Shown: one piece after another, positions 2,549 through 30,532 of the stretch
Layout: the number at the start of each line of letters is the position of its first letter
How positions within the stretch are numbered: the stretch's first letter is position 1
From: Candidatus Saccharimonadota bacterium
GTDB taxonomy: Bacteria > Patescibacteriota > Patescibacteriia > 2-12-FULL-60-25
NCBI GenBank assembly: GCA_963718585.1
Contig: OY970357.1
Coordinates: forward strand, 990,001 to 1,022,000
Length of the DNA stretch: 32,000 nucleotides
Reading direction: 5' to 3'
The notes under the pieces: model-generated
What the model saw: the letters and a program-made list of their open reading frames with translations, nothing else
What the model was told of the DNA's origin: nothing
The model's database searches: none
Position numbers and translations under genes: made by a program

Positions 2549-5500
2549 CTAAAGTGGAGTGAGTGAAATATTCTGGTCAACTAAGCCCTCATCTTTGTTG
2601 CTGAGATCGATATCTGGACTCCGGTACGGTTTGTATTGTGCCTTCTGCGCAGTCAGATAATAGACGTTCCGTCGAACGAAGAAGCCGTACTTTCCATTTG
2701 CATCCGTAACCTGTGTCTCCAAAAGCTTGTTGAATTTTTTATCGAAGATGCGCACGATAACTCGATCCAATGGTTTCCGCGTCTTGGCATCGAATGTGAC
2801 ACCCCAGCTCTTCGCCTTTGCGGGCAAAGCCAAACGACGGAAAAGCAGATAGATACCGACTTGTGCCATCACCAAAAGAGCATTCAGAAGCGAAGGACTG
2901 ATGACGAGGACCACCATACCCAGCAAAACCCCGCTGAACGCCACTCCGTGTCGTAACCGCCGTGCGAATTTCTGCCACAATATCTTCCGCGGCGTCTCTT
3001 CTGCCGTCACCGGATCCAGCGGAATGTTCATGGCGATCACTTCACCCTCCGTTCGCTCCATGGGAGCGCCATGATAGAGGTCCGTATAATCAACGTCTTC
3101 CTTATGCCCGGTAAGATAACTCGTTGGGAAGACAAAACCAGGCTTGACGACCTCGAGAAGGTATCGCCCTGCATGAACGACAAACCAGTATCGTCCGAAT
3201 TTATCTGTGACTCGCGTCTGCAGGACGATCCGTGTTTGCGCATCCAGTAAACGAACGATCGCCAGCTTCACCGGCTCTTTTGTCAACGAGTTATAGATCG
3301 TTCCCCACTTCCGCTTACGACGACGCTCAAACAGCAGAAGCGGCTGTGTGAAAAGATACTGGAGATATGCAAGGAGGTTGAAGAGGGAAAGGGATGCCGC
3401 CGCATTGGCAAGAACGGCGATCATGATCAACGGGGCGGCGATGGCATTCGCCGCCTGGACCGCGGGCGATTGAAGCGTTTGACGGATCAGCTGAACGCCA
3501 TAAGAGGTTTGCGAGGCGAGGTTCGTGACAGCTGCGGCTACTCGTTCCGCTAAAGTCGACGTCGCGGTGAGCACTGGCACGACGGGGATCTTGATCAATG
3601 AGACCTGCTGATTGAAAACATTGTCTCCGATCTGGGTGGGCACCGTCACCGCTGTGCGATATCCATCATGTTGTACCTCTATGTAGTAGCGGCCATTCGG
3701 GACCGTAAACCCGTACGCGCCATTCGCGTCTGCCGTTGCACTCCCATATGGGGTCCACACGCCATTCACGTCTCGGTAGAGCTGGATCTGAGCACCTGGG
3801 ACCGTCGTACCCGTCGGACCTGTAAGACCCTCTTCCACCACCGTGCCTGCGGACTTGGCTACGAGCGTATTTGAAACGATCGCCTGCCCCCCACCACTGA
3901 ACTGGACCGTGACGTTCGATGGATAGACCCCCGCAGAAGGGACCACGAAGATCCCACGATAGTCCGTGCCATTCGGTCCAGGCTGAAGGGCATATAGCGA
4001 CCCACCCACATTCAGCGTCATGGACGTCGGTGTCTGCCCGATCCCCGCAAGCGGCACGATCACCTGGATCTCTGATCCAGAGAGAGCACTGATGTTCCCG
4101 TTCACATCAGGCACGAGCTGGATCGACCCGTTGTTCCCGTAGTAGTAGACCGCGACATCCACCGTCACCGTCGAGCCTGCCGGGGTCGGAGTCGGACCGA
4201 CCGGTGGTACCGATGGAGGTGTCGGCGGCTGCGTGGCTGGCGAGGGGGGTGCAGGGGGTGTCGACGTTGGCGTAACGACCGGAGAAACACCGTTCGGCGT
4301 TGCCTGTGCAAGCGCGCCCGATGCGAAGTTACTATTCGTATCATAGGCGTATGCGCCGTAGAGATACGTCACGCCGTTGGTCAAGCCGGTATCCACCGTC
4401 GAGGCGCCTGTCCCATCGTACACAAGGATCCCATCGAATGGTCCGGTCGGGTAACTCCCTGTCTTGCGTAAGATCTTTGTGCCCGCAAAGTCTGCATCCG
4501 GCGGTAAACTCCATGAAAGAGACACGGTGGTATCACCCGGGACCGCCGTCAGATTAGAGACATTCGCCGGCGGCGTCACATCGCCACTGGTCGTGAAGGT
4601 CCCATCAGAGCTGTTCGTCGTATTCCCCGCGACATCAGAAGAACGAACGAAAAAATGATATCCGGTCAAAGGACTTAAGCCGTTCAACTGGACCGCGTGG
4701 GTCGTCACATACCCGGTCGTATTCGCGGTGAAACCGTATGATACGGTCGTCCCATAAAAAACATCAGACGTGGATGGTTCATTCGTCGACCACGTTACGA
4801 GCGCAGACGTCTCTGTGATGTTCGTGACCTGGATGTTCGAGATCACCGGAGGCGTCGTATCCCCAAGCGTCGTAAAGGTCTGGTCGGACGAGACCGCTGT
4901 CAAAGATGTCGAATCCGTTGACTGGACATAGAAATGATAGACCATCGACGGCGTAAGACCGGTCAGGTCAAGCGCGTGATTCACGACGAGCGTTCCATCA
5001 GACACCGTCCCGCTCGCATAGCTCGTCGTCTGTCCGTATGAAACGGAGGAATTCGCCGGCTTATCCGTGACCCACGTGATGTGCGCGGAATTCGATGTGA
5101 TGTTCGTGACCTGGATGTTCGAGATCACGGGAGGAGATGAACCTCCCGTACCGCCGCCCGTGCTCCCTCCGCACGTCGTACACGGTGGGGTGGTCGTCGC
5201 CGATGGAACGACGGCGGAAACGGTGACGGAATCATTGTCGATGATCGCGATGCCTATTGTCGACGTATCTCCGAACGTCCCACCGATCGTCTCATATGCC
5301 GGACCAGCGGTACCCGGGTTGACCATCTGATGAGAGCCCCCGGCATTCAGACCGATCCGCACCGTGATGCGATCATTTGAAGGGATCGAACCGGGTGCAC
5401 TATCCGTCGGTGCGGTAAGCGTGACCGTCGTTCCACTGATCCCGACACCCCAGGTACCCGCGGCCGGGACGGCCGCGACGGAGGTCGTATGTTCGTTTCC

Positions 5501-5815
5501 AGTCACACCCCACAAAAGACTGACGTCGCTCGACGTCAGTGTGGACAGATCAAATCCCGAAAAGGTCAATACGATCGTGTCCGACGATGCATCGATCCCG
5601 GAAGGTGTTTTAAAAAGGAGTTCGTGGTTTGCCGCGGTACTGACCTTCAAACGGCTCAACGTATCGCTTGCAGGTGTTGCGAGCGCCGCAGAGATGCTCC
5701 GAGCGATCAACGCAAAAACAACGATACTCAAGATCGTCCCTGCGATTCGAATACGTGGGCGCTTCACGAAAAAATAACGGCCCCTGACTTCAGGAGCCGC
5801 CACGCCCCCTGACAC
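2549..5815 (-). CDS. Large surface/membrane protein with an N-terminal signal anchor, three FN3-like modules, a Pro-rich linker, and three CarboxypepD_reg-like beta-sandwich domains interleaved with TM helices
   Basis: 1088-aa ORF. Signal anchor: ILSIVVFALIARSISAALA. FN3-like modules: PPVISNIQVTNITSNSAHITWVTD..., PPVISNIQVTNITETSALVTWSTN..., PPANVSNLTAVPGDTTVSLSWSLPP.... Pro-rich linker: TPTSTPPAPPSPATQPPTPPSVPPVGPTPTP. CarboxypepD_reg-like segments: GAQIQLYRDVNGVWTPYGSATADANGAYGFTVPNGRYYIEV, AIVRLLDAQTRIVLQTRVTDKFGRYWFVVHAGRYLLEV and VIVRIFDKKFNKLLETQVTDANGKYGFFVRRNVYYLTA. These are separated by hydrophobic stretches such as APLIMIAVLANAAASLSLFNLLAYL and VAFSGVLLGMVVLVISPSLLNALLVMAQVGIYLLF. 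The start codon is uncertain. Confidence 0.85.
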   Translation of the reverse strand: MSGGVAAPEVRGRYFFVKRPRIRIAGTILSIVVFALIARSISAALATPASDTLSRLKVSTAANHELLFKTPSGIDASSDTIVLTFSGFDLSTLTSSDVSLLWGVTGNEHTTSVAAVPAAGTWGVGISGTTVTLTAPTDSAPGSIPSNDRITVRIGLNAGGSHQMVNPGTAGPAYETIGGTFGDTSTIGIAIIDNDSVTVSAVVPSATTTPPCTTCGGSTGGGTGGSSPPVISNIQVTNITSNSAHITWVTDKPANSSVSYGQTTSYASGTVSDGTLVVNHALDLTGLTPSMVYHFYVQSTDSTSLTAVSSDQTFTTLGDTTPPVISNIQVTNITETSALVTWSTNEPSTSDVFYGTTVSYGFTANTTGYVTTHAVQLNGLSPLTGYHFFVRSSDVAGNTTNSSDGTFTTSGDVTPPANVSNLTAVPGDTTVSLSWSLPPDADFAGTKILRKTGSYPTGPFDGILVYDGTGASTVDTGLTNGVTYLYGAYAYDTNSNFASGALAQATPNGVSPVVTPTSTPPAPPSPATQPPTPPSVPPVGPTPTPAGSTVTVDVAVYYYGNNGSIQLVPDVNGNISALSGSEIQVIVPLAGIGQTPTSMTLNVGGSLYALQPGPNGTDYRGIFVVPSAGVYPSNVTVQFSGGGQAIVSNTLVAKSAGTVVEEGLTGPTGTTVPGAQIQLYRDVNGVWTPYGSATADANGAYGFTVPNGRYYIEVQHDGYRTAVTVPTQIGDNVFNQQVSLIKIPVVPVLTATSTLAERVAAAVTNLASQTSYGVQLIRQTLQSPAVQAANAIAAPLIMIAVLANAAASLSLFNLLAYLQYLFTQPLLLFERRRKRKWGTIYNSLTKEPVKLAIVRLLDAQTRIVLQTRVTDKFGRYWFVVHAGRYLLEVVKPGFVFPTSYLTGHKEDVDYTDLYHGAPMERTEGEVIAMNIPLDPVTAEETPRKILWQKFARRLRHGVAFSGVLLGMVVLVISPSLLNALLVMAQVGIYLLFRRLALPAKAKSWGVTFDAKTRKPLDRVIVRIFDKKFNKLLETQVTDANGKYGFFVRRNVYYLTAQKAQYKPYRSPDIDLSNKDEGLVDQNISLTPL

Positions 5816-5843: not shown

Positions 5844-6920
5844 TCACTTCTTTGATTCTTCTTTTTTCTTTGCTTTACTGACTGCACCCTTGATGACCAT
5901 CGCATTATACCCCTTGATCAAGAGAAGGAGGAGAATGAATGCCGCGAGGATGAGAAGGAAGAGCCTCCACGGAAAGATCCAGAACGAAACCGTCGCATTC
6001 AAGGGAGCGTGCGCGCTCCCATACGTCCCTTCAAGTGTCGCTGTATATTTCCCGATCCCGAAGCCACTCCACTCTGCAGCCAATTGGTCAAAGAATCCTC
6101 CTGACTTTGCATACGAGTTCCCCCATTCTGTACGGACACGGCGAATGCTGTTCGGGAGGACACGGCTCCCCTGAGGATTCGCCGACACTTCACCGACCGT
6201 ACTCCCGAACATATTTTTGATGACCACTTTCCCTCCAAGCGCGAAATGGACGCTCCCTTCATTTTGAATACGCGTCTCAAACAATGCCGGAAGATGGTCG
6301 ATCTCGGAAACAGGCGTCTCATGCTCCGGGTCAGCCGCACTCATCACGCTGAATGATTCAACGGTCGCCTGCTCATGAATGTCACCATTGACCGTGACCA
6401 GCAGCAATACACCCGTCTTAGCCCCAACGCCGACGGCCGTAGCCCCTTGTTCCGATGGCGGAATGGTCGAGAAGAACACGGCGGCATAGTGACCGCCTGG
6501 TTCGGCATCTTTCGGAAGAGAGATCGCAAAAGCGAAATCTCTCGACTCCCCTGCCTTGAGCGTCACCGATGGTTGATCAAGAGCGACCCATGAGACCAAG
6601 CCGCTCGTATCCGTCTCCGGCATGAAGCGCTGTTGCCCCTCTTCTCCATATGGGACGAAATTTTGGACCGTTGCGTAATAGGTCTGTTCCCCATTCGAGT
6701 CATTCGTCAGGTGTAAGACCTCTTGCGCCCTACCGCCTGGATCAAGACGCTCCTCAAGGAGAACTGGTGAGACCGCAAATGCATGTGCGGCCAAGGGGAA
6801 AAGAAGCGGACTCGCAAAAAGGAACAGAACGGCGATACGACGTCGGAGTTCGGACATATATGGAGGTGAACGAATCAATTCTGCAGTTCTGACGCCGGAA
6901 GACCCGGCGTCAGTCAGCAA
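5844..6920 (-). CDS. Secreted cell-surface protein resembling DUF916/DUF3324 (CscA-like), with a C-terminal TM anchor and basic tail
   Basis: 358-aa ORF. The likely true start is the internal ATG at 6857, giving MSELRRRIAVLFLFASPLLFPLAAHA as a signal peptide. The body is FAVSPVLLEERLDPGGRAQEVLHLTNDSNGEQTYYATVQNF...VSWVALDQPSVTLKAGESRDFAFAISLPKDAEPGGHYAAVFFS. The C-terminus is WRLFLLILAAFILLLLLIKG followed by KAKKKEESKK. The family assignment is from recalled pattern similarity, not from a search. Confidence 0.8.
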   Translation of the reverse strand: MLTDAGSSGVRTAELIRSPPYMSELRRRIAVLFLFASPLLFPLAAHAFAVSPVLLEERLDPGGRAQEVLHLTNDSNGEQTYYATVQNFVPYGEEGQQRFMPETDTSGLVSWVALDQPSVTLKAGESRDFAFAISLPKDAEPGGHYAAVFFSTIPPSEQGATAVGVGAKTGVLLLVTVNGDIHEQATVESFSVMSAADPEHETPVSEIDHLPALFETRIQNEGSVHFALGGKVVIKNMFGSTVGEVSANPQGSRVLPNSIRRVRTEWGNSYAKSGGFFDQLAAEWSGFGIGKYTATLEGTYGSAHAPLNATVSFWIFPWRLFLLILAAFILLLLLIKGYNAMVIKGAVSKAKKKEESKK

Positions 6921-6926
6921 GATCGA

Positions 6927-8006
6927 CTAGAAGGAGGCCGTGACCGTATAGGTCACTGTCTGCTGGTAGTTACCTGCAGGAGTACTTGCACTCATAGCTG
7001 CCGCGTGTTCGACAAGTGTCGTCGCAGTGGTCGATGGGGCTGCACCCGCCGTGAACGCACCTCCGTAGGAGATGAAGTTCTGCGCCGTCGATGTCGGGAC
7101 CGGCGATGAGTCCACATCGAACGTGTACCCAACCGGCGAATCTTCAACGACCGGCTGGTCGAAGGCAGAGGTATCCGTAGTCGAACGTCCGCCCTGTGTC
7201 GCTCCAGTCAGTGTCTGGATCCCATAGGATTCCGAACCTGAGCTAAAGGCGGTGTCATTCGTGATGTCCGTCATGGTTGCACTCCCCGAACCCAGGTCGT
7301 GATCTGCGAGGATCTGGGCCTGGAAACCATTCGCGGCATTCGTCGCGATGCGCAATCGATACTGACAGGTGCTCACAGACGAGAGAGAAAGGGTCCCCAG
7401 GTCACACGAGTTGGTGTTCGACGTGTCCGCAGCGTTGCGGATGACGAATGAAAGCGTGGCCGGAACGTTTGCCGTCACATTCACCTGGTTGCCACCGTTC
7501 GCATAGAACAGCGCAGCGCCGAAGTCCGCCGGGTTGGAGGTGAAGACGGAGAACGAGTAGTTGGTCGACGTCGTACCGTTGAAAGTGAACCCCAACGGGA
7601 CCGAGTAGGTCGTTGCGGTATTATCCGTCGTGGTCGCCACGGTGAAGGTAATGTCGAACGTGCTACCCGTGGAGCTTGCGGTGTATTGGGTATCCGTTCC
7701 ACCAGGACCATCGATAGGTCCGGTAACGCCATCAAGATTGAAGTCGGATGAACCCGTCACATAGTAATCCGTGAGCGGAGTGAGACCGCTATCAAGACCA
7801 GCAGCGACGCTGATCGTGATCGTGGTACCCGTCGCATAGGTCGTCCCTGCGGCCTTTGTCCAACTTAACGTAACGGATTGCGGGGAGGTCGAGCTCGACG
7901 AGGGCGTGAGCGTGACCGTCACACCCTCTGCTCCGACCGGCATGACGGCAAATGCCGTGCCGAACAGCAGCGCGATGCTGGCGATCGATGAAATGAACTT
8001 TCTCAT
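6927..8006 (-). CDS. Secreted Thr/Ser-rich surface protein, WxL-like paralog A
   Basis: 359-aa ORF with signal peptide MRKFISSIASIALLFGTAFAVMPVGA. It has low-complexity T/S/G-rich beta-type sequence. The C-terminus STPAGNYQQTVTYTVTASF is shared with the next gene. Confidence 0.8.
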   Translation of the reverse strand: MRKFISSIASIALLFGTAFAVMPVGAEGVTVTLTPSSSSTSPQSVTLSWTKAAGTTYATGTTITISVAAGLDSGLTPLTDYYVTGSSDFNLDGVTGPIDGPGGTDTQYTASSTGSTFDITFTVATTTDNTATTYSVPLGFTFNGTTSTNYSFSVFTSNPADFGAALFYANGGNQVNVTANVPATLSFVIRNAADTSNTNSCDLGTLSLSSVSTCQYRLRIATNAANGFQAQILADHDLGSGSATMTDITNDTAFSSGSESYGIQTLTGATQGGRSTTDTSAFDQPVVEDSPVGYTFDVDSSPVPTSTAQNFISYGGAFTAGAAPSTTATTLVEHAAAMSASTPAGNYQQTVTYTVTASF

Positions 8007-8164: not shown

Positions 8165-9085
8165 TCAGTAATTGGCTGTCAAAGTGTAAAAGACCGTCTG
8201 ACCGTAATTACCTGCTGGCGTAGAAACCGTCACTGACGCTTTATACACGAGCGCTACGCCTTCGTTTCCACTCGTTGATGATGCGGAGCTTTGTATCGTA
8301 TGTACACTTGTCGAGAACCCAAAGTCCGTACCTGCACCGACCGCCTGATCACCGATGACACTAGCTCCGTACTCTTCTGAACCGATCGTCACAGACCCAT
8401 CCGTGACGTTCGTAATGGAGTTTGATCCATCTCGAAAGTCACCATCGTCTGAAACGTCAACAGTATACCCGTTTTGTGCATTCGATGTCACTCTGGTACC
8501 CGTCAAGGAGGACTTCCCTGTACTTGGACTCAATGTGCCAAGTTCCGCAGAAGCACCATTCATGCGGTAAACAGAGTCATTTCCACCACTCGGGACCGCA
8601 CTTAATGAACTCGGTTCCCCTTGCCAGTTATCCACAGTCAAGAGCGTCCCAACGATGTCCGTGATCTTTCCAAATGCGACTTTTTCATTTAACCCAACAT
8701 CCTCAACAACACCCACCAGATCACCGATGGCATACCCAGAAGCTGAGGAAACGGTCACGGTTTTTGCAGATGCATCAAACGCAGAATACGAGACCTGAGT
8801 CGTATTTTCCTGCGTACCGATCTGAAACGATAGATAGGTAAGATCCTGATCCCCCGTTCTATAGCCGGCACTGACCGTATAGTTTGTACTTGATGAAAAA
8901 CCCGTTGCCTGCTCCCCGACCGTATCGCGAAGCAGATAGTTTGTAGACGTCGCAACATCAACCCCTCCTGAATTTACAGAATCCCAATTGATCTGATAAT
9001 TCGAGCTGCCCATAGCCCAAACATGGCCCGATATCAAAACAAGGGCTATCGACAAGCAAGAAGCCAAAATAAAGATCCTTTTCAT
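8165..9085 (-). CDS. Secreted surface protein, WxL-like paralog B
   Basis: The ORF extends to 9124, but that upstream part overlaps the -35 box of a near-consensus promoter. The ATG at 9085 gives MKRIFILASCLSIALVLISGHVWA as a signal peptide. An S(S/T)NY motif recurs three times near the N-terminus (SSNYQINW, STNYLLRD, STNYTVSAGY). The C-terminus is STPAGNYGQTVFYTLTANY. Confidence 0.8.
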   Translation of the reverse strand: MKRIFILASCLSIALVLISGHVWAMGSSNYQINWDSVNSGGVDVATSTNYLLRDTVGEQATGFSSSTNYTVSAGYRTGDQDLTYLSFQIGTQENTTQVSYSAFDASAKTVTVSSASGYAIGDLVGVVEDVGLNEKVAFGKITDIVGTLLTVDNWQGEPSSLSAVPSGGNDSVYRMNGASAELGTLSPSTGKSSLTGTRVTSNAQNGYTVDVSDDGDFRDGSNSITNVTDGSVTIGSEEYGASVIGDQAVGAGTDFGFSTSVHTIQSSASSTSGNEGVALVYKASVTVSTPAGNYGQTVFYTLTANY

Positions 9086-9095
9086 CTGTATTTGA

Positions 9096-9124
9096 ATTAT
9101 ATAACAAATTGGACACTGTTTCAA
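9096..9124 (-). promoter_or_regulatory. Near-consensus sigma70-type promoter of the surface-protein gene cluster
   Basis: Minus strand: TTGAAA (9124-9119), a 17-nt spacer, then TATAAT (9101-9096). The TATAAT ends 10 nt before the ATG at 9085, so the leader would be only a few nt. No SD is present. Confidence 0.6.
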
Positions 9125-9236
9125 AGCTCAATATAGCCAATCATTAAGCTTCGTAAAATATATATTTATGATTCATGAGCTTGTGAGACCACTGTACTTA
9201 CAATTTGTTCAAGTTTAATAACAGTTGAATCACAAT

Positions 9237-9252
9237 TGTTTCACATGAAACA
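9237..9252. promoter_or_regulatory. Palindrome copy 1, candidate operator
   Basis: TGTTTCACATGAAACA. The two arms TGTTTCA/TGAAACA are perfect; the centre is CA rather than CG. Confidence 0.55.
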
Positions 9253-9337
9253 TTTTGCATAAATTAAACATCTGACAAAATAGATACCAAACGTGAATAC
9301 ACTCAAGGAAAGATACAAATCGAAAAATTATCAAAAA

Positions 9338-9353
9338 TGTTTCATGTGAAACA
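9338..9353. promoter_or_regulatory. Palindrome copy 2, candidate operator
   Basis: TGTTTCATGTGAAACA, with the same arms and centre TG. Confidence 0.55.
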
Positions 9354-9440
9354 CTTGGTTTATTCTAAGCAGGGAATTATATCTATGCTCAATAATCAAT
9401 AATGTGTTTCGATCATTAATACTAGATTATTTCGTTTTCA

Positions 9441-9458
9441 ATGTTTCACGTGAAACAT
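9441..9458. promoter_or_regulatory. Palindrome copy 3, candidate operator
   Basis: ATGTTTCACGTGAAACAT, a perfect 18-bp palindrome with a CACGTG core. Confidence 0.6.
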
Positions 9459-9494
9459 TTTGAATACAATCAATTAAAGTATTTTTACATCCAA

Positions 9495-9510
9495 TGTTTC
9501 ACGTGAAACA
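9495..9510. promoter_or_regulatory. Palindrome copy 4, candidate operator
   Basis: TGTTTCACGTGAAACA, a perfect 16-bp palindrome. Confidence 0.6.
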
Positions 9511-9530
9511 CTGAGAATTTATATTTTTGA

Positions 9531-9562
9531 TAAAAACAAAAACAACGGATTTCACCGTTGTT
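9531..9562 (-). terminator. Rho-independent terminator after tRNA-Ala
   Basis: Minus strand: AACAACGG, loop TGAAAT, CCGTTGTT, then TTTGTTTTT. Plus-strand stems are 9541-9548 and 9555-9562. Confidence 0.7.
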
Positions 9563-9568
9563 ATTGTT

Positions 9569-9645
9569 TGGTGGACCGAGAGGGATTCGAACCCTCGACC
9601 TCTGCAATGCGAATGCAGCGCTCTAGCCAACTGAGCTACCGGCCC
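9569..9645 (-). tRNA. tRNA-Ala (anticodon CGC), CCA encoded
   Basis: The reverse complement is GGGCCGGTAGCTCAGTTGGCTAGAGCGCTGCATTCGCATTGCAGAGGTCGAGGGTTCGAATCCCTCTCGGTCCACCA. It folds as a cloverleaf with the G3:U70 alanine identity pair, anticodon loop TTCGCAT and T-loop TTCGAAT. Confidence 0.93.
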
Positions 9646-9817
9646 ATGAATTCTTCATCTTTTAAATCTATGTACCTATCTCATTTGAAAGGAGCCGGCG
9701 AAAGTCACGATCCGTATACTTTTGTCAGATATATTTTCAATGAGAGTTATCAAATGCAAAGGTCAATCGTATATTAGTTCAAATGATCATCAAGGCAACA
9801 ATGAAAGAAGAGAGAAA

Positions 9818-9859
9818 CTAGAAGCTAGAAGCTGGAAGCTAGAAGCTAGAAGCTAGAAT
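9818..9859. repeat. Heptanucleotide tandem repeat (CTAGAAG) x6
   Basis: The units are CTAGAAG CTAGAAG CTGGAAG CTAGAAG CTAGAAG CTAGAAT. The array is flanked by direct copies of AAATGATCA at 9781-9789 and 9868-9876. The frame read from the first unit (9818) reaches a TAG stop after 12 codons. Confidence 0.9.
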
Positions 9860-9912
9860 GACGATCTAAATGATCACGACTGCACCATAGAATATTTTCG
9901 AGTCTTCTCATG

Positions 9913-9930
9913 ATGTTTCACGTGAAACAT
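9913..9930. promoter_or_regulatory. Palindrome copy 5, candidate operator
   Basis: ATGTTTCACGTGAAACAT, a perfect 18-bp palindrome lying between tRNA-Arg and tRNA-Ala. Confidence 0.6.
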
Positions 9931-9963
9931 CAAGATGAGATCAGTCGTTGAATGCACCTGGCC

Positions 9964-9992: not shown

Positions 9993-10066
9993 TGGTGCCT
10001 CCAGGTGGACTCGAACCACCATCTAGGGCTTAGGAGTCCCTCGTTCTTCCTTTGAACTATGGAGAC
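9993..10066 (-). tRNA. tRNA-Arg (anticodon CCU), CCA encoded
   Basis: The reverse complement is GTCTCCATAGTTCAAAGGAAGAACGAGGGACTCCTAAGCCCTAGATGGTGGTTCGAGTCCACCTGGAGGCACCA. The anticodon loop is CTCCTAA. Overall it resembles the E. coli argW-type tRNA as I recall it. Confidence 0.9.
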
Positions 10067-10192
10067 ATGCGTCGTAAAATATTACGACCGTACTTCACCC
10101 TTTCCGTTTCTTCGCTTGTCAAACAGCTATTTAAGGTGCGAGCAGTGTACGAAACTATTTTTCTACCGTCAATCGAGAGAACCCCAATGTGC

Positions 10193-10532: not shown

Positions 10533-11363
10533 TTATTGTAGTTGTGTCACGTTTTCACGCGCACTCCCCAGACTCGTTCGTGAACCGATGAGGGCACGAA
10601 GGATGGAAAGGAACTTCACGCCCGGATCCTTCATTCGCAACCCATGGAGCTTGCGCGCAACGTACGGATTGATCCCATCCGTTTCACCGTCATGCACTTG
10701 TATGGCCTGTCGTGATTGTTTGACGACGATCGGGATCAACTGATCTGCACCTACCGCATCGACCCGCTGGCGCCACGCACGCGTGTTGCCCAAAAATGCG
10801 TCACCCACATCAAAGACCGACGTTTCATCCAACGCATGTTCCGCTATGTGCGCATGGACGAATGCGCCCGACTTTTGTAGTTCTTGTTCCGCGCGCCATG
10901 GATCGCCGATCGTCTGCTCTGCGATCTGACGCGTGCGCGATTCAGCCACTCCCAGCTCTTTTCCGCGCGCCACGCACCATATCGCGTGTGCTAACGCAGA
11001 CCGAAGAGGATAGGAATACACATGAAGATCCGCGTCCTTGAATTCATCCAGGACTTTTTTCGTCGGTGCTTCGTCCTCCACGACCACGAGGATCGTGGAA
11101 CCGCCATCCGCTGCGAGACGTTTTGCCAAAATACGGACCTGCGCGATCGGCGCTTTTGCCAACAACCCATCGCATCGCACATATCGTTTTTGCGCGAAGA
11201 GAGACGGCGTCCCGATCCGGTTCAATATCTCCTTCGGATCCGGAGAGGGGAGCGTCTCCATGCTCAACCCTTGCGGGTCGAACTTTTTCCGGAACGCGTC
11301 AGCAAGCTCCCGTGCTTTTTGCCGGGCTTGTAGGGTATCCGGACCCGCGCACACGATGATCAT
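10533..11363 (-). CDS. holA: DNA polymerase III delta subunit-like protein (short HolA)
   Basis: 276 aa. MIIVCAGPDTLQARQKARELADAF, SLFAQKRYVRCDGLL, ILVVVEDEAPTKKVLDEFK, and a C-terminal helical part with GDPWRAEQELQKS. This matches the HolA layout by pattern only. Confidence 0.55.
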   Translation of the reverse strand: MIIVCAGPDTLQARQKARELADAFRKKFDPQGLSMETLPSPDPKEILNRIGTPSLFAQKRYVRCDGLLAKAPIAQVRILAKRLAADGGSTILVVVEDEAPTKKVLDEFKDADLHVYSYPLRSALAHAIWCVARGKELGVAESRTRQIAEQTIGDPWRAEQELQKSGAFVHAHIAEHALDETSVFDVGDAFLGNTRAWRQRVDAVGADQLIPIVVKQSRQAIQVHDGETDGINPYVARKLHGLRMKDPGVKFLSILRALIGSRTSLGSARENVTQLQ

Positions 11364-11429: not shown

Positions 11430-14096
11430 TTACACGAGCTTTGTCATCTCTTCCCAATTCTTTCCCGCTTTGGCATCGACGACCAACGGACACCCAATAT
11501 CTTCGACGTGTTCCATGATATCTTTCACGGCCTTGGCGACCTTCGCAACGTCCTTTTCCGGCACCTCGAGCACGACCTCATCATGGACCTGCAATAACAG
11601 TCGCGCCTCTTTGCAGATCTTCGGCAGTTCGCGGTCGATCACGATGAGTGCGAGCTTCGGGAGATCACCGGTCGCCGTGCCTTGGACCGGCATGTTGATG
11701 GCCATCCGTTCCGCCGCAGCGCGAAACTGCGGCAGGGGAGAGTTGATATCCGGGATCGGCCGACGCCGGCCGAAAAGCGTCTCCACATAACCCTGAGCAT
11801 GCGCCAACGCCTTGGTCTGATCCAGATATTCCCGGATCCCGGAATAGACATGGAAATACTCATCGATGAACTGGCGTGCTTCGGCGTACGGGATCCCGGC
11901 GGCTTTTGAAAGTCCCTGTGGCCCCTGACCGTAGATGATGCCGAAATTGATCGCCTTCGCTGCTCGACGCTGATCCTTCGTCACCTCGTCAAGAGGGATG
12001 TGCCAGATCGCGGCGGCCGTTGCCGTATGAATGTCCAGCCCCTTGCGAAACGCGTCGAGCATCTTCTCGTCTTTAGCGAGAGCGGCAACGACACGAAGCT
12101 CAACTTGGGAATAGTCACAGGAGAGCAGCTCATATCCCTTGGGGGCGACGAATCCATGACGGATCCGGCGCCCGAGCTCGGTCCGGATCGGGATATTCTG
12201 CAGATTGGGATCAGAAGAAGAGAGACGTCCCGTTGCAGCGACCACTTGATTGAACGTGGTGTGGACACGCCCCTCTGGATCGGCGAGTTCTGGCAGCGTC
12301 TCCACGTAGGTGGACAGCAACTTCGCGATCTCACGGTAGGCGGTGATCTTCTCGATGATCGGATGCGCGCCATCAAGCTTCTCCAGCTCAGAGGCCGCCG
12401 TGGAGATCCCCGTCTTCCCGCGCTTGAGCCCTTTGGTCGGAAGATCGAGTACGTCGAACAGGATGTGCGACAATTGGATCGGTGAACCGGGATTGAACGA
12501 TTCACCCGCCAGCTTCACCATTTCCTTTTCTAATTTCGCGCGCACGCGGCGAAATTCCACAGCCAGTGTCTTGAAATACGCACGATCGATCAGGATCCCA
12601 TATGCTTCCATCTTTCCGAGTACCGGAATGAGCGGACGCTCGAACCGTTCCCACACGGATGTCAGGCGTTGCGCTTCCAATTCCTCACCCAGCATCTTTG
12701 CGAGGCGGCGGATCGCATCCACCTCGGCGATCGGATCATCGCTCAACGTGACGCCTAACTCCGCGGCGGCGAGAGAGGGGAGTCCGTGCCCGCCTTCACC
12801 GGCCGCGAGAAGATACGATGCGATCTCTGTATCGAATGCAATACCCTCCAGATCCATCCCATGATCGCGGCACCAATGCCACGCGTGCTTGAGTCCGTGG
12901 CCGATCTTACCCACCTTTGGGTCTTGTAGACATGCAGCTAAGGCTCGGGACGTAGGTGCATCCTTCAAGACGCTCGGCGGGATCAAGATCGTTTCCGCCT
13001 CACTCCCAAGAGCCAACACCGGCGCTTCTGCAAAGAGCGACTCCTGCGCGACCTCCAACGGATGGACGATCAAACTCGATATGCCTTTCAAGAACGCATT
13101 CAGATCCTGCTGTGTGGAGATCGACTTTCCACTCACGGCAGGCAATCCCGTTCGGGACTTTTTTTGAGGCGTCACCGGGGGAGGGGAGGAGGGGCGCGTT
13201 GCAGCAGGCTTTTTCGGTGCCGACTTCCCGATCCGGGATAGAAGCGAAGCGAATCCATATCGAAGAAAGAGCGTGCGGATCCGATCCTCATCTGCCGGAC
13301 GGCGTTTCAGATCCTCGTCTTTGATCTTGAGCGGAACATTCGTCACGAGCGTTACGAGCGACAACGTCTCTTCCGCGGCCTTCGTCCCGTCGATCAACCT
13401 CTTTCGGACCGCGGGCGACATGTCACTCTTCGGATCCTTAGCCGCCTTGAGAACACCTTTCAGATCCACGAATTTCATGAGCAATTCCGTCGCGGTCTTA
13501 TCGCCGATCCCTGGCACCCCCTTCAGATTATCCGATGCGTCGCCGCGCATGGCCTTATAGTCCGCGATCTGTGCCGGCGTCAGGCCCATCTGTTCTTTTA
13601 AGGCCTTTTCATCGATGATCGCGGTTTCACTCACCCCTTTTTTGAATGACATGACGCGTACATGGGGTCCGATGACCTGCCATACATCCCGATCACTCGT
13701 CAAAAGCGTGACAGCGACCCCTTCCTTAGACAGCCGCGTCGCGAAGGTCGCGAGCAGATCGTCCGCCTCATAGCCATCCTTTTCGACATTCGTGATCCCG
13801 AATGCATCCACGATCTCCTTCACGATGTCGAACTGTTCATAAAATTCATCAGGCTGCTCTTCGCGTTGGGCTTTGTATGCGGGCTCAGCTTCGTGCCTAT
13901 ACGTCGGAGCCGGTGTATCCCAACAGACCGCGATATACTCCGGATGCTCAGCTTGCAGGATCTTGATGAGTACGGACGCGAACCCGTAAGCCGCATTCAC
14001 GACCTTTCCATCAGGCGAGGTCAATGGAGGTAACGCGTGCCACGCCCGATGGATGAGCGCGTTAGCATCGATAAGCAAAGCGTTTGGCGTCGGCAT
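11430..14096 (-). CDS. polA: DNA polymerase I (5'-3' exonuclease, degenerate 3'-5' exo-like domain, and polymerase domain)
   Basis: The start is chosen at ATG 14096 (MPTPNALLIDANALIHRAWHAL). The longer ORF to 14351 overlaps the upstream gene and its terminator. Pol motifs: A is DYSQVELRV, B is RRAAKAINFGIIYG, C is QVHDEVV. The positions expected for exo motifs read LIVHPLEV and GHGLKHA rather than DxE and NLKYD, so proofreading is probably inactive. Confidence 0.93.
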   Translation of the reverse strand: MPTPNALLIDANALIHRAWHALPPLTSPDGKVVNAAYGFASVLIKILQAEHPEYIAVCWDTPAPTYRHEAEPAYKAQREEQPDEFYEQFDIVKEIVDAFGITNVEKDGYEADDLLATFATRLSKEGVAVTLLTSDRDVWQVIGPHVRVMSFKKGVSETAIIDEKALKEQMGLTPAQIADYKAMRGDASDNLKGVPGIGDKTATELLMKFVDLKGVLKAAKDPKSDMSPAVRKRLIDGTKAAEETLSLVTLVTNVPLKIKDEDLKRRPADEDRIRTLFLRYGFASLLSRIGKSAPKKPAATRPSSPPPVTPQKKSRTGLPAVSGKSISTQQDLNAFLKGISSLIVHPLEVAQESLFAEAPVLALGSEAETILIPPSVLKDAPTSRALAACLQDPKVGKIGHGLKHAWHWCRDHGMDLEGIAFDTEIASYLLAAGEGGHGLPSLAAAELGVTLSDDPIAEVDAIRRLAKMLGEELEAQRLTSVWERFERPLIPVLGKMEAYGILIDRAYFKTLAVEFRRVRAKLEKEMVKLAGESFNPGSPIQLSHILFDVLDLPTKGLKRGKTGISTAASELEKLDGAHPIIEKITAYREIAKLLSTYVETLPELADPEGRVHTTFNQVVAATGRLSSSDPNLQNIPIRTELGRRIRHGFVAPKGYELLSCDYSQVELRVVAALAKDEKMLDAFRKGLDIHTATAAAIWHIPLDEVTKDQRRAAKAINFGIIYGQGPQGLSKAAGIPYAEARQFIDEYFHVYSGIREYLDQTKALAHAQGYVETLFGRRRPIPDINSPLPQFRAAAERMAINMPVQGTATGDLPKLALIVIDRELPKICKEARLLLQVHDEVVLEVPEKDVAKVAKAVKDIMEHVEDIGCPLVVDAKAGKNWEEMTKLV

Positions 14097-14128
14097 GGCG
14101 ACACAGTACCGCACCCATTGAAATAATG

Positions 14129-14160
14129 AAAAGACCCCGCCGTTCGCGAACAGCGGGGTC
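14129..14160 (-). terminator. Rho-independent terminator after the 309-aa orphan gene
   Basis: Minus strand: GACCCCGC, 12-nt loop, GCGGGGTC, then TTTTC. Confidence 0.65.
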
Positions 14161-14166
14161 AGACGA

Positions 14167-15096
14167 TCAGATGACGAACCGAGCGAACGGATCCGTGGCG
14201 CGATCGGCCTTGGTGTACCGATGCAACCGGATCTCCGTCTCCTCCTTGGGACCGTTCTCCACGAACACGAGCATGCCCTTGGTGGCCGCAGGAGCGCAAA
14301 GCACCGTGCCCACGGTCTTGATCTCGTCGCTCCAGTCCACGCGTGGCTCACCTCCTCCGACCTGGGAGATCGTGAGGATCCGAGCGTTGGCGCCGGCCAG
14401 ATTGACGATGAAGGAGAGACCGTCCGCGGTCAGGAACGGGTTCGAGAACGACATGATACCCGGGTCGCGGAACGTCGCGACCGGCTTCCACTCTCCCTGG
14501 TCGAACAAGGCCTCGGGATACTCTTCCGCCCGCGCGAGCTCCATGCAGACGACCTGCTTGCCGATCCGCTTCTCGTTGAGTCGGATCCCGTAGATCCGCT
14601 TCTCGTTCGGGACGTAGCGGATGCTCGTGATCCCGGGGATCGGGTCGGTCCGATGGTCTGTCCGCACGTACTGCTCACGCGCCCGATGCGGCGACGCAGC
14701 GGCGAGATAGAGCGGGACGCCTTCCGTACCCGTCCGATCCCGAACGCTGTCGAGCGTATCGAGCACCTGCCACAGGTTCCGACGATGCGCCACGATCTTC
14801 GTCGTGTTCGCTTCGAAGAAAAGCAGACGCCCCGCCGGGATCACCGAGGTGATCATCGGCGACTCCGCGGCCTCGAGCCAGACCGACTCCGCGGCCTCGA
14901 GCGAGCGAAGGTAGGTGATCGTCCCCCTGTTCTTGCGATGGTCGACCATGACACTGACGAACCGATCAGCCGTGATGGCGTGATCCTTGATCGCGAGACC
15001 GAGCGTCCCTATCGGGGACTTGGTCGTACGAAGGATCGCGTTCGCGACGGTACGGTCGATGGCATTGGGATCGTTCGAAACGGCATGTACCTGCAT
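14167..15096 (-). CDS. Hypothetical protein (orphan; no signal peptide and no motif I recognise)
   Basis: 309-aa ORF with protein-like composition and its own terminator. The overlapping plus-strand 416-aa ORF is Arg-rich wrong-frame sequence. It contains two in-frame direct DNA repeats (14860-14878/14884-14902 and 14563-14577/14593-14607). Confidence 0.6.
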   Translation of the reverse strand: MQVHAVSNDPNAIDRTVANAILRTTKSPIGTLGLAIKDHAITADRFVSVMVDHRKNRGTITYLRSLEAAESVWLEAAESPMITSVIPAGRLLFFEANTTKIVAHRRNLWQVLDTLDSVRDRTGTEGVPLYLAAASPHRAREQYVRTDHRTDPIPGITSIRYVPNEKRIYGIRLNEKRIGKQVVCMELARAEEYPEALFDQGEWKPVATFRDPGIMSFSNPFLTADGLSFIVNLAGANARILTISQVGGGEPRVDWSDEIKTVGTVLCAPAATKGMLVFVENGPKEETEIRLHRYTKADRATDPFARFVI

Positions 15097-15218
15097 GTTC
15101 TATCCTCATTTCTTCCGTTGGAAACCCAGATAAGAGGTGGTCCGTCATCTCAGATTGAAGAAAGGGCGGGCCGCCTAAGCGGTCAGGGCCTCAATGCTAC
15201 GCATAAACCGCCTGAACG

Positions 15219-15962
15219 TCAAGATGGACGGATCGCGGAGATATGCTTGACGATGGCGACGTCCAAACCCAAACGCGCCGCTTTTCGGGCTTCGCCCGCC
15301 GTGGAGCGCATGTCCCACGCACCCACATGGACCCCCATGCGGCGAAGGCGTGTGACGCGTCGGGCATTCAGGACCGTGACCGGAAAGGCGACGCCCCATG
15401 GTCGAAGACGACGGACACGCGCCCGTAGCGTACGGCCACGGAACGGAAGCGGCCATCGCTGGATCAGGTAGATCGTTCTGATCTCCGGACATTCTCGATG
15501 GATGAGCTCAAGAGTCGAACGGGAGAAAGAGGAGACGATGGCTCGTTCACGGAGTGAGGCGCTTGTCTTGAGCTTGATCGCCAATGCAAGCGCCGCTTCT
15601 CGATGTTTGATCTCAAAGTCAATGACCGCTGGTGCATGTATCGCTGCCGTGACCTCATTGACGGTCGGGATATGCCCTCCGTACCTTAATGGGATCTGTC
15701 GAAGTTCATCCGCGGTCAGCTCGATTACTTTATGCGCATCACCCGCGACCCGGTGAAGATTGGCATCATGGATCACGACCAGCTCCTTATCCTTCGAAAG
15801 ACGGACATCGAGCTCCAATCCATCCGCGCCCTGGGAGATCGCTTCCACAAAAGCAGGAAGGGTGTTTTCCCCATGCGTACGACTGGTGAACCCACGGTGT
15901 GCCAAGACGATCATGTGGGCCGAATCATAGCGCGCGGAGCTCTTTCCGGCCATGGAAGACAT
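15219..15962 (-). CDS. Glycerophosphodiester phosphodiesterase family protein
   Basis: MIVLAHRGFTSRTHGENTLPAFVEAISQGADGLELDVRLSKDKELVVIHDANL contains the GDPD HRG...ENT...E.D...HD signature. The start could be 15962 or the ATG at 15914. Confidence 0.85.
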   Translation of the reverse strand: MSSMAGKSSARYDSAHMIVLAHRGFTSRTHGENTLPAFVEAISQGADGLELDVRLSKDKELVVIHDANLHRVAGDAHKVIELTADELRQIPLRYGGHIPTVNEVTAAIHAPAVIDFEIKHREAALALAIKLKTSASLRERAIVSSFSRSTLELIHRECPEIRTIYLIQRWPLPFRGRTLRARVRRLRPWGVAFPVTVLNARRVTRLRRMGVHVGAWDMRSTAGEARKAARLGLDVAIVKHISAIRPS

Positions 15963-16013: not shown

Positions 16014-16088
16014 GGCGTGATAGCCAAGTGGTAAGGCACGGGTCTGCAAAACCTGTATTCGCGGGTTCGATTCCCGCTCACGCCTCCA
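16014..16088 (+). tRNA. tRNA-Cys (anticodon GCA), CCA encoded
   Basis: GGCGTGATAGCCAAGTGGTAAGGCACGGGTCTGCAAAACCTGTATTCGCGGGTTCGATTCCCGCTCACGCCTCCA. The anticodon loop is CTGCAAA, and the U73 discriminator is typical of tRNA-Cys. Confidence 0.93.
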
Positions 16089-16137
16089 ACGAAAATGCCC
16101 GCTCCATGCGGGTGTTTTCGTAAGCGGGGATCGAACA
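16069..16137 (+). repeat. Direct repeat copy 1: last 20 nt of tRNA-Cys, its terminator, and 17 more nt
   Basis: 69 bp identical to 16231-16299: GATTCCCGCTCACGCCTCCAACGAAAATGCCCGCTCCATGCGGGTGTTTTCGTAAGCGGGGATCGAACA. Confidence 0.95.
16097..16118 (+). terminator. Rho-independent terminator after tRNA-Cys
   Basis: CCCGC, loop TCCAT, GCGGG, then TGTTTT. Confidence 0.65.
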
Positions 16138-16230
16138 AGGGAAGGATGAAACCGTCAGGTTTCATATTCGGAGGAGGGTATGCGGGAACCCGAAGGTTCC
16201 TGCAAGAGTCCGTAACAGCGGACGACGTGA

Positions 16231-16299
16231 GATTCCCGCTCACGCCTCCAACGAAAATGCCCGCTCCATGCGGGTGTTTTCGTAAGCGGGGATCGAACA
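16231..16299 (+). repeat. Direct repeat copy 2: orphan tRNA-Cys 3' fragment plus a terminator copy
   Basis: A perfect 69-bp copy offset by 162 bp from copy 1. It lacks the 5' two-thirds of the tRNA. Confidence 0.95.
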
Positions 16300-20021: not shown

Positions 20022-20130
20022 GCGGATGTCGTTTGAGGGATTATGGCGGTGAGCATATCGGAAACCACGAGATTTGACAACCCCTCTGCCATTTATGGAT
20101 CCGATCAGAGCCTCACACAGCCCTTAAAAA

Positions 20131-20221
20131 GGTGGATAACAAAGACATCATTGTGTATGCTTCACATCATTATCCACGTTTTATCAACATGTTTGACTTT
20201 TCACTTTCCGACTGTTGATAT
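20131..20221. promoter_or_regulatory. DnaA-box cluster and putative dnaA promoter
   Basis: Boxes with one mismatch to TTATCCACA: GGTGGATAA (20131-20139, reverse), TTATCCACG (20170-20178), TTATCAACA (20181-20189). A weaker box is TGTTGATA (20213-20220). Possible promoter: TTGACT (20193-20198), 17 nt, TGATAT (20216-20221). Confidence 0.55.
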
Positions 20222-20250
20222 CTACATCGAACATTCCTCTCGCACCTCCT

Positions 20251-21645
20251 ATGGATACAAACGAAATCTGGCGCGCCTCACTTGGAGAGCTTGAATTGAC
20301 ACTCTCCAAGGCCAACTTCACCACGTGGTTCAAAAACACGTTCATCTCATCATATGACGGGACGCGCGTCGTGATTTCTGTTCCGAACACTTTCACGAAA
20401 GCATGGCTTGAGAAGAAATATCATGACGCGATCGTCCACGCTCTGCGGAACGTGACCCAAGCGAACATCCGGGATGTCACGTACCGCGTCGAAGTGCGAA
20501 ACACGACGCCGCTCCCGCAGTTCGCGGATCAGATCGAGCCCGATCGCGTTGAAGAGGATTTTCGCATGTCTGCACCGGCGTCGAGTGCATCATCATCTAC
20601 CCCACCATCAGACGTCGGACTCAATCCCCGATACACCTTCAACTCCTTTGTCGTCGGCAAGGCGAATGAACTCGCACATGCCGCAGCCATGGCCGTAGCG
20701 GCAAAGCCCGGTGACGCCTACAATCCGCTCTTCATCTATGGCGGCTCGGGTCTCGGCAAGACCCACCTGCTACAGGCGATCGGTCATCATGTCATCGCCT
20801 CACGCCCGGATGCCAAGATCCTGTATGTGACCTGTGAGCGATTCACGAACGATTTCATCCAGTCGGTCCGCGGGGGCCGAGCGAAAGATTTCAAAGACCT
20901 TTACCGCAACGTCGACGTCCTCCTCATTGATGACGTGCAATTCATCACCGGTAAAGAAAGTACTCAGGAGGAATTCTTTCATACCTTCAACGCCCTCCAT
21001 CAAGCCAACAAGCAGATCATCCTGACAAGCGACCGCTCACCGAAAGATATCCAAGGCCTCGAATCCCGACTTCTGACCCGGTTCGAATGGGGGATGATCG
21101 CGGACGTGAGCAGTCCTGACTTTGAGACGCGGATCGCGATCCTTGATGCCAAGGCGCGAGAAAAACACGTCCAACTCCATCCGGAGATCCTCCGATACAT
21201 CGCCGGGACGGTCCAATTGAACGTCCGCGAACTTGAAGGGGCATTGAACAAGATCATTGCCTATCATCAGTTCAAAAACGTCTCTCCGACCTTGGAATCC
21301 GTCCAAACCCTCCTGCAGAGCTTTGTTCCTAACGCTCCGAAACGGACGATCACGCCACGCCGCCTCATGGAGATCGTGGTCGAATATTATGATCTCCCCA
21401 TGGAAGATCTAATGGGCAAAAGTCGTGAACAACGCTTCGCCTTCCCCCGACAGGTCGCGATGTATCTCATGCGCGAGGAAGCGAAGTGCTCCTTCCCAGC
21501 CATCGGGAACAACGTCGGCGGCCGTGACCATACAACGGCCATGCATGCCTGCAGTAAGATCGCTCAACTCCTGAAAGACGACGATAAACTTCGTCATGAC
21601 ATCTCGCTCATCCGTGAAAAACTCTACAGTGGATCCTCTGGATAA
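20251..21645 (+). CDS. dnaA: Chromosomal replication initiator DnaA
   Basis: [27 protein letters not shown]. Walker A is [11 protein letters not shown], Walker B is LLIDDVQF, and the C-terminal DNA-binding signature is [12 protein letters not shown]. The ORF track starts at 20215; ATG 20251 is preferred. Confidence 0.95.
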
Positions 21646-29465: not shown

Positions 29466-29530
29466 AGTTCGAGGCCGCATCCGCACCCCTCTCTACACCG
29501 CTACGTGTTGTTGATCATCGTGTCAAGAAG

Positions 29531-29554
29531 AAAAAAAGACCCCAAGAAGGGGTC
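29531..29554 (-). terminator. Rho-independent terminator overlapping the stop of the 128-aa gene
   Basis: Minus strand: GACCCC, loop TTCTT, GGGGTC, then TTTTTTT. Confidence 0.7.
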
Positions 29555-29939
29555 AGGACGTTTCTTTGGCCATTGCATCAAGACGGCGTTGAAGGGAGGT
29601 TCGCTCCAGATCGATGTCTTCGCGAACGTCCATGGGCATGGCGTGATATGCGTACTCGAGTGCGCAGAGCCGCATGAAGTGCTCACCGTATGGCACGGTC
29701 TTGCAGACCACGATGGCACGGCCACAGTCCGAACACTGGGCGACGCGAACATGGAAATCCTGTTCGAGCGTCTTGCCAGTCGGACTTTTATGCGACGGCA
29801 ACTGACCGACGAAGGTAAAGGTCCGACCGCCGATCAGTGTATGTGTGCACGTCTCGTGCGGCGTATCGATGGCACTGACCAACAGGATGGTACTTGCGAG
29901 GAGAAAAAAGACCAAAACGAACGATGAAACCATGCGCAC
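29553..29939 (-). CDS. Small secreted or membrane-anchored Cys/His-containing hypothetical protein
   Basis: 128 aa. Signal peptide MRMVSSFVLVFFLLASTILLVSA. Six Cys, including a CSDC pair. It has its own terminator. The antisense 140-aa ORF has no such features. Confidence 0.55.
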   Translation of the reverse strand: MRMVSSFVLVFFLLASTILLVSAIDTPHETCTHTLIGGRTFTFVGQLPSHKSPTGKTLEQDFHVRVAQCSDCGRAIVVCKTVPYGEHFMRLCALEYAYHAMPMDVREDIDLERTSLQRRLDAMAKETS

Positions 29940-29975
29940 CTCCGCGCACGAACGTAGCGGAGCTTGGTCGGTCCG

Positions 29976-30416: not shown

Positions 30417-30532
30417 GTGTATTGCGATGCGGACGGTGGAGAATGGGAGGACGTGCGTGTAACGGACGTGATTGTACGGCGAGCAATGACCGGAGCATTC
30501 GACGAACGGTTGCGCCGAACACGCATACCGAC

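Follow-up and report, generated by a model that had tools for sequence, protein, structure and literature searches.

An origin-proximal array of five palindromes, probable chromosomal parS sites, among the tRNA genes of a Patescibacteria chromosome

Introduction

Five copies of a short palindrome lie close together among the tRNA genes of an uncultured bacterium. What are they for? The first-pass annotation of this locus regarded the five copies as operators of a dimeric transcription factor, and it reported that they match no known operator consensus. That comparison was made with transcription-factor operators only, and a match to parS, the centromere-like binding site of ParB/Spo0J, was missed.

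Here we ask whether the palindromes control neighboring genes or serve the chromosome as a whole. The window is the entire 32-kb stretch of DNA that we analyzed. We propose that the five palindromes are very probably chromosomal parS sites, which form a centromere array near the origin of a Patescibacteria (CPR) chromosome. This reading follows from the identity with published parS sequences, the enrichment of the motif, its restriction to a single intergenic cluster, its proximity to the origin and its conservation between diverged flanks.

Results

Five palindromes form a single intergenic cluster

A search of the window for TGTTTCAYRTGAAACA returns five matches, all intergenic and all within 693 bp. 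As palindromes they are given without a strand. Site 1 (TGTTTCACATGAAACA, 9237-9252) and site 2 (TGTTTCATGTGAAACA, 9338-9353) each differ from the perfect palindrome by a single central mismatch (CG>CA and CG>TG, respectively). Sites 3, 4 and 5 are perfect copies of TGTTTCACGTGAAACA and lie at 9442-9457, 9495-9510 and 9914-9929. Site 3 is contained in the 18-bp palindrome ATGTTTCACGTGAAACAT (9441-9458). The same 18-bp form surrounds site 5 (9913-9930), which also sits inside a longer imperfect palindrome (9903-9940). The arms are constant in all five sites, and variation is confined to the central CG. The five copies, their 18-bp forms and their invariant arms are therefore as first described.

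The sites start 101, 104, 53 and 419 bp apart. The first three distances agree with those given earlier. The idea that they represent whole helical turns is weak: they correspond to 9.6, 9.9 and 5.0 turns, and relatives do not conserve them.

Sites 1 and 2 are reverse complements of each other. They also have part of their flanks in common: over 33 nt the two sites form an inverted repeat with 88% complementarity, which probably arose by a small local inverted duplication.

Five copies are far more than expected by chance. One hundred dinucleotide-preserving shuffles yield an expectation of 0.02 copies at up to two mismatches, compared to the five observed. When up to three mismatches to the perfect palindrome are allowed, the shuffles predict 0.14 copies, and the 32 kb contain no additional site. 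Isolated half-sites (GTTTCAC) are not enriched: four occur outside the cluster, where about four are expected (a hand estimate for a 7-mer on both strands).

A supposedly related everted arrangement, ATGAAACCGTCAGGTTTCAT, is indeed present at 16146-16165. It has more than three mismatches to the motif, however, and is an unrelated small hairpin. On either side of it are exact 69-nt repeats of a tRNA-Cys 3' end plus terminator, which are 93 bp apart.

The array lies between two tRNA genes and a surface-protein operon

Two minus-strand tRNA genes, tRNA-Ala(cgc) (9569-9645) and tRNA-Arg(cct) (9993-10066), frame one end of the array. Downstream of tRNA-Ala(cgc) there is a terminator-like hairpin (9541-9562). 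Beyond the array there is a minus-strand cluster of surface-protein genes, whose first member starts at 9124 or 9085, and the pilus-like operon runs from 9124 to 2549. Sites 1 to 4 fall between the hairpin and the start of the first surface-protein ORF, with site 4 about 30 bp past the hairpin. Site 5 falls between tRNA-Arg and tRNA-Ala. The whole region is AT-rich, with a GC content of 0.354 compared to about 0.55-0.60 in the rest of the window. We thus find the same placement as the first-pass annotation.

Two candidate promoter elements, both of them predictions, precede the surface-protein genes: a conserved motif (9161 to 9148) and a -35/-10 pair predicted by a scan (9124 to 9096). Both elements lie downstream of the nearest palindrome, at a distance of about 75 bp or more. 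An Rfam scan of the window returned three tRNAs only, and no family for the palindromes.

The palindrome has the sequence of chromosomal parS

Table 1 of a review of parS sites (PMC7022226) gives TGTTNCACGTGAAACA as the consensus of Bacillus subtilis parS. For Hyphomonas neptunium the same table gives TGTTTCACGTGAAACA, which is exactly the 16-mer found here, and for Burkholderia chromosome I it gives tGTTNCACGTGAAACa. The Spo0J site is described as highly conserved on primary chromosomes across bacteria (PMC4368675). In a literature text search, the exact 16-mer appears alongside the term parS in multiple published papers. When we compare the window with TGTTNCACGTGAAACA, three sites match perfectly and two have one central mismatch. 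Judged by this identity, TGTTTCACGTGAAACA is the canonical chromosomal parS.

One observation counts against the parS reading. Two of the five sites are altered in the central CACGTG core, and work on Pseudomonas aeruginosa reports that this core matters for affinity (PMC4368675).

What remains of the operator interpretation is its first half. A palindrome with invariant arms and a non-random distribution is what a dimeric protein would bind, but the site it would bind is parS and almost certainly not an operator. Hence the feature itself is already known: it is ordinary chromosomal parS and no new gene-regulation motif.

The array is close to the replication origin

Where on the chromosome does the array lie? 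Pfam identifies DnaA (20215-21645) and DnaN (21868-23001) in the window, as well as a class A PBP, PolA, trigger factor, a ComM-like Mg-chelatase ATPase, LspA and a DksA-type protein. The genes rnpA and yidD come after dnaN. A minus-strand rpmH, which we read by eye from the sequence, is located between the PBP gene and dnaA. Given its dnaA, dnaN, polA, tig and rnpA genes, the window is the origin region of the primary chromosome.

The intergenic region between rpmH and dnaA (20023-20214, no strand assigned) is a candidate oriC or dnaA promoter. This 190-bp spacer contains three DnaA-box-like 9-mers (20131-20139, 20170-20178 and 20181-20189). The cumulative GC skew drops steadily from the left end of the window to a minimum at about 22.0 kb and then climbs. 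Genes are mostly on the minus strand on both sides of this minimum, which means that the sign of the skew does not track the coding strand. Hence the skew reflects replication direction.

The array is about 10.1-11 kb away from the candidate oriC, on one side of it, a distance that qualifies as origin-proximal for parS. This linkage is demonstrated for the window alone and not for the relatives described below; in one of them (L005), dnaA is absent within 5.6 kb beyond PBP1A.

We also considered the AT-rich parS region as oriC itself. It contains zero DnaA-box-like sites and the GC-skew minimum is 12 kb off, and we rejected it.

Relatives keep the site but not its flanks

Probing with PolA gave 9 loci from GTDB species representatives and 14 from metagenomes. 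Overall we fetched 25 loci, 24 of them distinct. Even in the closest relatives, which are labelled Patescibacteria, PolA is just 51-63% identical. Two further close MAGs are tagged 'uncultured Gammaproteobacteria', apparently in error.

Three relatives have both sufficient downstream sequence and preserved synteny, and all three carry the motif in the same slot (polA, holA-like, rpsT, tRNA-Arg, tRNA-Ala, pilus-like operon). In L005 (PolA about 51-55% identical) there are six perfect copies. The order of features is PBP1A, tRNA-Cys, GDPD, polA, holA-like, rpsT, tRNA-Arg(cct), two parS, tRNA-Ala(cgc), four parS and surface proteins, the last being homologues of the 319-, 359-, 358- and 1088-aa surface proteins of the window. 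L002 (PolA 63% identical) has three copies, one of them within the 35 nt that separate tRNA-Arg from tRNA-Ala and the other two 1.3-1.5 kb further on. The most distant of the three, L014 (PolA 41% identical, GC 30%), has four copies around tRNA-Arg(cct). All four are central variants (three times TGTTTCATGTGAAACA and once TGTTTCACATGAAACA), and downstream of them lies a homologue of the large surface protein from the left edge of the window. The array therefore stays linked to tRNA-Arg(cct) even in L014 and, in the two closer relatives (L002 and L005), to tRNA-Ala(cgc) as well.

The L014 locus bears on the two variant sites of the window. Since it uses a CA/TG core only, the variant-core sites of the window may be read as functional; the comparison suggests that they are not decayed copies.

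Copy number and spacing vary between genomes (in L005 the spacings are 32, 262, 56, 61 and 380 bp). To see what else is conserved, we compared the intergenic sequence of the window with that of L005 and L002, scoring shared exact stretches of at least 10 nt. Three kinds of block are conserved: the tRNAs, the parS 16-20-mers and a single short promoter-like motif. Other shared stretches are scattered, non-collinear matches of 10-12 nt in AT-rich spacer only. In L002, L005 and L014 the site is thus kept at orthologous positions between diverged flanks. No copy of the 16-mer lies outside the syntenic cluster in the 24 distinct related loci, and in the 32 kb of the window together with the fetched loci this cluster holds the only copies.

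Conservation of the 16-mer without its flanks argues for selection on the 16-mer itself, as a protein-binding site and not as a mobile repeat. Membership of a dispersed repeat or MITE family with conserved flanks had been named in advance as a finding that would overturn the operator interpretation. The flanks are not conserved between the window and its relatives, and the motif survives this check.

Two loci, L004 and L013, are organized differently. Here the slot after rpsT is taken by comM-lspA-dksA, genes that in the window lie beyond dnaA, on its other side, and this rearranged slot contains no parS. Judged by gene order, this is an origin-spanning rearrangement in the L004/L013 lineage.

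A cognate ParB is predicted from the conservation of its sites

If the palindromes are parS, then a ParB should read them. Pfam and NCBIfam scans of ORFs detected neither parA nor parB, whether in the window or among the 25 loci that we fetched (24 distinct). A tblastn search of the window and the loci with an approximate Spo0J query gave a best match of E=1.7. Weak matches near parS in L002 and L005 (E=2.5-5.8) were considered as parB and rejected as chance; one of them is antisense to a surface-protein ORF. In the open-access literature we found no relevant paper on ParABS in CPR, Patescibacteria or Saccharibacteria.

The pattern of conservation nevertheless argues strongly that a protein reading the sites exists. 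We infer that the genome encodes a cognate ParB that binds them, together with every step that would follow binding.

Genomes of CPR bacteria are reduced, and one may ask whether ParB has been lost here and the sites are relics, nonfunctional or taken over by another protein. The reduced genomes and the missing ParB gene in the window and the fetched loci fit such a loss. However, three of the window's five sites match the palindrome perfectly, and in three relatives three to six perfect or uniformly variant copies persist between flanks that have diverged completely. Such conservation indicates ongoing purifying selection, which is unexpected for relics. We therefore consider relic sites very unlikely.

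Alternative functions of the sites

The primary role of the array is almost certainly that of a centromere and not operator control of tRNA or surface-protein genes. Three other functions need to be weighed against, or in addition to, this role.

The first would add to it. The sites could be true parS, and the ParB complex spreading from them could in addition adjust how strongly the adjacent pilus-like operon or the tRNA genes are transcribed. Similar effects have been reported for other bacteria: chromosomal ParB represses promoters beside parS3 and parS4 in P. aeruginosa (PMC5521831), and ParB modulates the neighboring com operon in Streptococcus pneumoniae (PMC4488948). The array stays linked to tRNA-Arg, to tRNA-Ala (in the closer relatives) and to the same surface operon down to a PolA identity of 41%. 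Yet synteny can be inherited without function, and in L004 and L013 the linkage is broken. Such dual use is a secondary reading that we consider unlikely, if conceivable.

The second would replace the centromere altogether. The sites would be operators of a dimeric transcription factor unrelated to ParB, controlling the tRNA genes, the surface (pilus-like) operon or both. Several features speak for such operators: every site is intergenic, four sites precede the first gene of a conserved surface-protein operon, L005 and L014 show the same arrangement, and invariant-arm palindromes are typical of dimeric regulators. All of this is outweighed by other observations. The sequence is identical to parS. 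We looked for a co-occurring regulator gene and found none adjacent to the array. An operator should sit at the core promoters of its regulon, but the nearest site keeps its distance of about 75 bp or more from both candidate elements, which are themselves predictions. One or two sites lie between or right beside tRNA genes, in L002 even within the 35-nt tRNA-tRNA spacer. Number and spacing of the sites are not conserved, and neither in the window nor in the related loci does the motif precede any other gene. An operator function is thus highly improbable.

The third, a small dispersed repeat (MITE) or a hairpin RNA element such as a terminator or processing signal, can practically be dismissed: the palindromes are perfect and lie in AT-rich noncoding DNA, sites 1 and 2 are alike over about 33 nt and site 5 is part of a longer imperfect palindrome, but beyond the local similarity of sites 1 and 2 the flanks are unrelated among the 18 copies (window, L002, L005 and L014), dispersed copies are absent from the window and the fetched loci, no Rfam family matches, no T-run follows the palindromes, and the terminator-like hairpin is elsewhere (9541-9562).

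Discussion

The array compared to known centromeres

The centromere reading places the array among well-studied systems. The three perfect copies are letter-for-letter the same as B. subtilis Spo0J parS and H. neptunium parS, and like these they are origin-proximal. The arrangement differs from both. H. neptunium has two parS sites, compared to five here. In B. subtilis, parS sites are spread across hundreds of kb. Eight of its ten sites are in the ori domain according to the review cited above (PMC7022226), whereas the window packs five sites into 693 bp.

Clusters of several parS sites near oriC, with a mix of perfect and one-mismatch copies, are also present in P. aeruginosa, Caulobacter crescentus, Myxococcus xanthus and Streptomyces coelicolor. 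The clusters of these four species usually include or adjoin the parAB operon. The array in the window is instead found among tRNA genes and beside a pilus-like operon. A second difference concerns the sequence: the four species use GC-richer variants (TGTTCCACGTGGAACA/G), and in the window the mismatches sit in the central CG. For P. aeruginosa, four high-affinity sites (parS1-4) are reported to be clustered less than 16 kb from oriC (PMC4368675), and all parS sites listed for C. crescentus (5/5) and M. xanthus (22/22) are in the ori domain (PMC7022226).

Two other types of ParB-family sites resemble the array less. Secondary chromosomes and plasmids also have clustered palindromic ParB sites as centromeres, but the sequence is a different one, for example gTTTATGCGCATAAAc on Burkholderia chromosome II (PMC7022226). 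Moreover, the window belongs to a primary chromosome with dnaA, dnaN, polA, tig and rnpA. In Firmicutes, the ParB paralogue Noc binds Noc-binding sites (NBS), which like the motif in the window are palindromes of 14-16 bp bound by a helix-turn-helix protein of the ParB family. The NBS consensus, ATTTCCCGGGAAAT, is different from our motif. NBS are also spread over the chromosome except for the terminus, in contrast to the origin cluster in the window.

How the array could work

Studies of ParB from other bacteria suggest how the array could work. ParB dimers bind the 16-bp parS, and parS catalyzes the CTP-dependent closure of ParB into a clamp that slides on DNA. The clamps spread to adjacent DNA and form a partition complex, which is the adaptor for the ParA ATPase and for SMC loading (both as described in PMC8494293, PMC8299390 and PMC7022226).

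For the array in the window we envisage the same sequence of events. Each 16-bp site would be recognized by a ParB/Spo0J dimer through its helix-turn-helix domains. The site would then catalyze the CTP-dependent closure of ParB into a sliding clamp, and the clamp would escape to the flanking DNA. Repeated loading at five close sites could produce a dense, origin-proximal partition complex. Five sites within 693 bp would thus act as a strong and concentrated ParB loading zone. ParA would use the partition complex to segregate sister origins, and the same complex would double as a loading point for SMC.

What the array means for this lineage

The array matters mainly for annotation, as it marks the centromere of the chromosome. 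Combined with rpmH, dnaA and dnaN, it pins down the origin region of an uncultured CPR genome, and it leads us to expect a ParB gene in that genome. A false lead also falls away, since the motif is not a new regulatory operator.

Some residual interest attaches to the fact that quite distant relatives keep the array next to tRNA genes and a CPR pilus-like operon, and to the central-CG variant that L014 uses exclusively. One could speculate that in this lineage a compact parS array is fixed by tRNA-Arg(cct), tRNA-Ala(cgc) (in the closer relatives) and a Pam-pilus-like operon, that the ParB complex may do more than segregate chromosomes, and that the CG>TG core could mark a shifted specificity of CPR ParB. 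We regard this combination as a long shot. If it were true, the ParB complex could silence the pilus-like operon or time it with the cell cycle, and strong tRNA transcription might bound the ParB domain. The CG>TG core itself, counted in either orientation, is found in two of the five sites of the window and in all four sites of the AT-rich L014.

A promoter-like motif beside the surface-protein genes

A short motif, ATATTTTACGACGC, directly adjoins the 5' end of tRNA-Arg(cct), and a second copy with one mismatch lies immediately upstream of the first surface-protein gene. Both copies are on the minus strand (10069-10082 and 9148-9161), giving an observed count in the window of 2 against an expected 0.09. 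The motif is kept among the related loci that were retrieved with PolA as probe, as distant as 41% PolA identity. It occurs once in L005 (15210-15224), twice in L002 (15163-15178 and 16968-16980) and three times in L014 (15105-15121, 15161-15175 and 15898-15911; coordinates of each locus). We propose that ATATTTTACGACGC is probably a promoter element (-10/start) typical of the lineage.

Two proteins of the surface-protein cluster resemble components of the Pam pilus. The 319-aa protein (8165-9124, minus strand) matches the NCBIfam model for PamT (E=2e-14) and also that for the Pam pilin C-domain, which the 359-aa protein (6927-8006, minus strand) matches as well (E=3.5e-11); every Pam score falls below the curated cut-off. 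Three further minus-strand ORFs (5844-6920, 2549-5815 and 1-2472) are probable members of the same cluster. The Pam pilus system is CPR-specific (2026 bioRxiv preprint, doi 10.64898/2026.03.03.709456). A relationship between the cluster and this system may be taken as a lead only, and the Pam-type matches also support the CPR origin of the window.

Variation around the parS sites

In L014, an AT-rich relative (GC 30%), all four parS-like sites (15265-15777) carry an asymmetric variant of the core, CG>TG/CA, and none is a perfect palindrome. Such cores could reflect a loss of CpG that ParB tolerates, or else a shift in ParB specificity.

In the window, the fifth parS site is surrounded by a longer imperfect palindrome (9903-9940) with 19-nt arms and 84% complementarity. 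About 55 bp from this site, the stretch separating tRNA-Arg from tRNA-Ala contains a tandem heptamer repeat, (AGAAGCT) x 6.6, at 9813-9858. The counterpart of the fifth site in L002 falls within a tRNA-Arg/tRNA-Ala spacer of 35 nt, and thus would be transcribed as part of the tRNA precursor.

The polA neighbourhood

About 1.1 kb (14081-15219) separates the GDPD gene from the conserved start of PolA in the window. L005 lacks this stretch, and its GDPD and PolA genes are directly adjacent. The PolA ORF encodes 973 aa, with similarity to other PolA proteins starting at residue ~91. The stretch has an elevated GC content (0.63) and contains ORFs overlapping on opposite strands, 14167-15096 (minus) and 14221-15471 (plus), neither of which has a match in Pfam or NCBIfam.

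Between polA and rpsT, a 276-aa ORF (10533-11363, minus strand) is predicted to be a very divergent holA, encoding the DNA polymerase III delta subunit. It matches TIGR01128 under the cut-off (E=4.6e-10) and has no match in Pfam. Its position is kept in relatives, at an identity of merely 26-42%.

Rearrangement across the origin and a repeat at tRNA-Cys

In two other related loci, L004 (5521-9565) and L013, the genes immediately after rpsT are comM-like, lspA and dksA-like; their counterparts in the window (27951-30907) lie across dnaA/dnaN from rpsT. This difference in gene order implies that the lineages differ by a rearrangement spanning the origin.

An exact direct repeat of 69 nt (16069-16137 and 16231-16299) comprises the final 20 nt of tRNA-Cys(gca) and 49 nt 3' of the gene, including a terminator-like hairpin. 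ARAGORN finds only one intact tRNA-Cys in the window. The repeat pair resembles the attL/attR-type scar that an element integrating at the tRNA 3' end would leave, with the interior nearly gone. Within the 93 bp that separate the copies sits a hairpin at 16146-16165.
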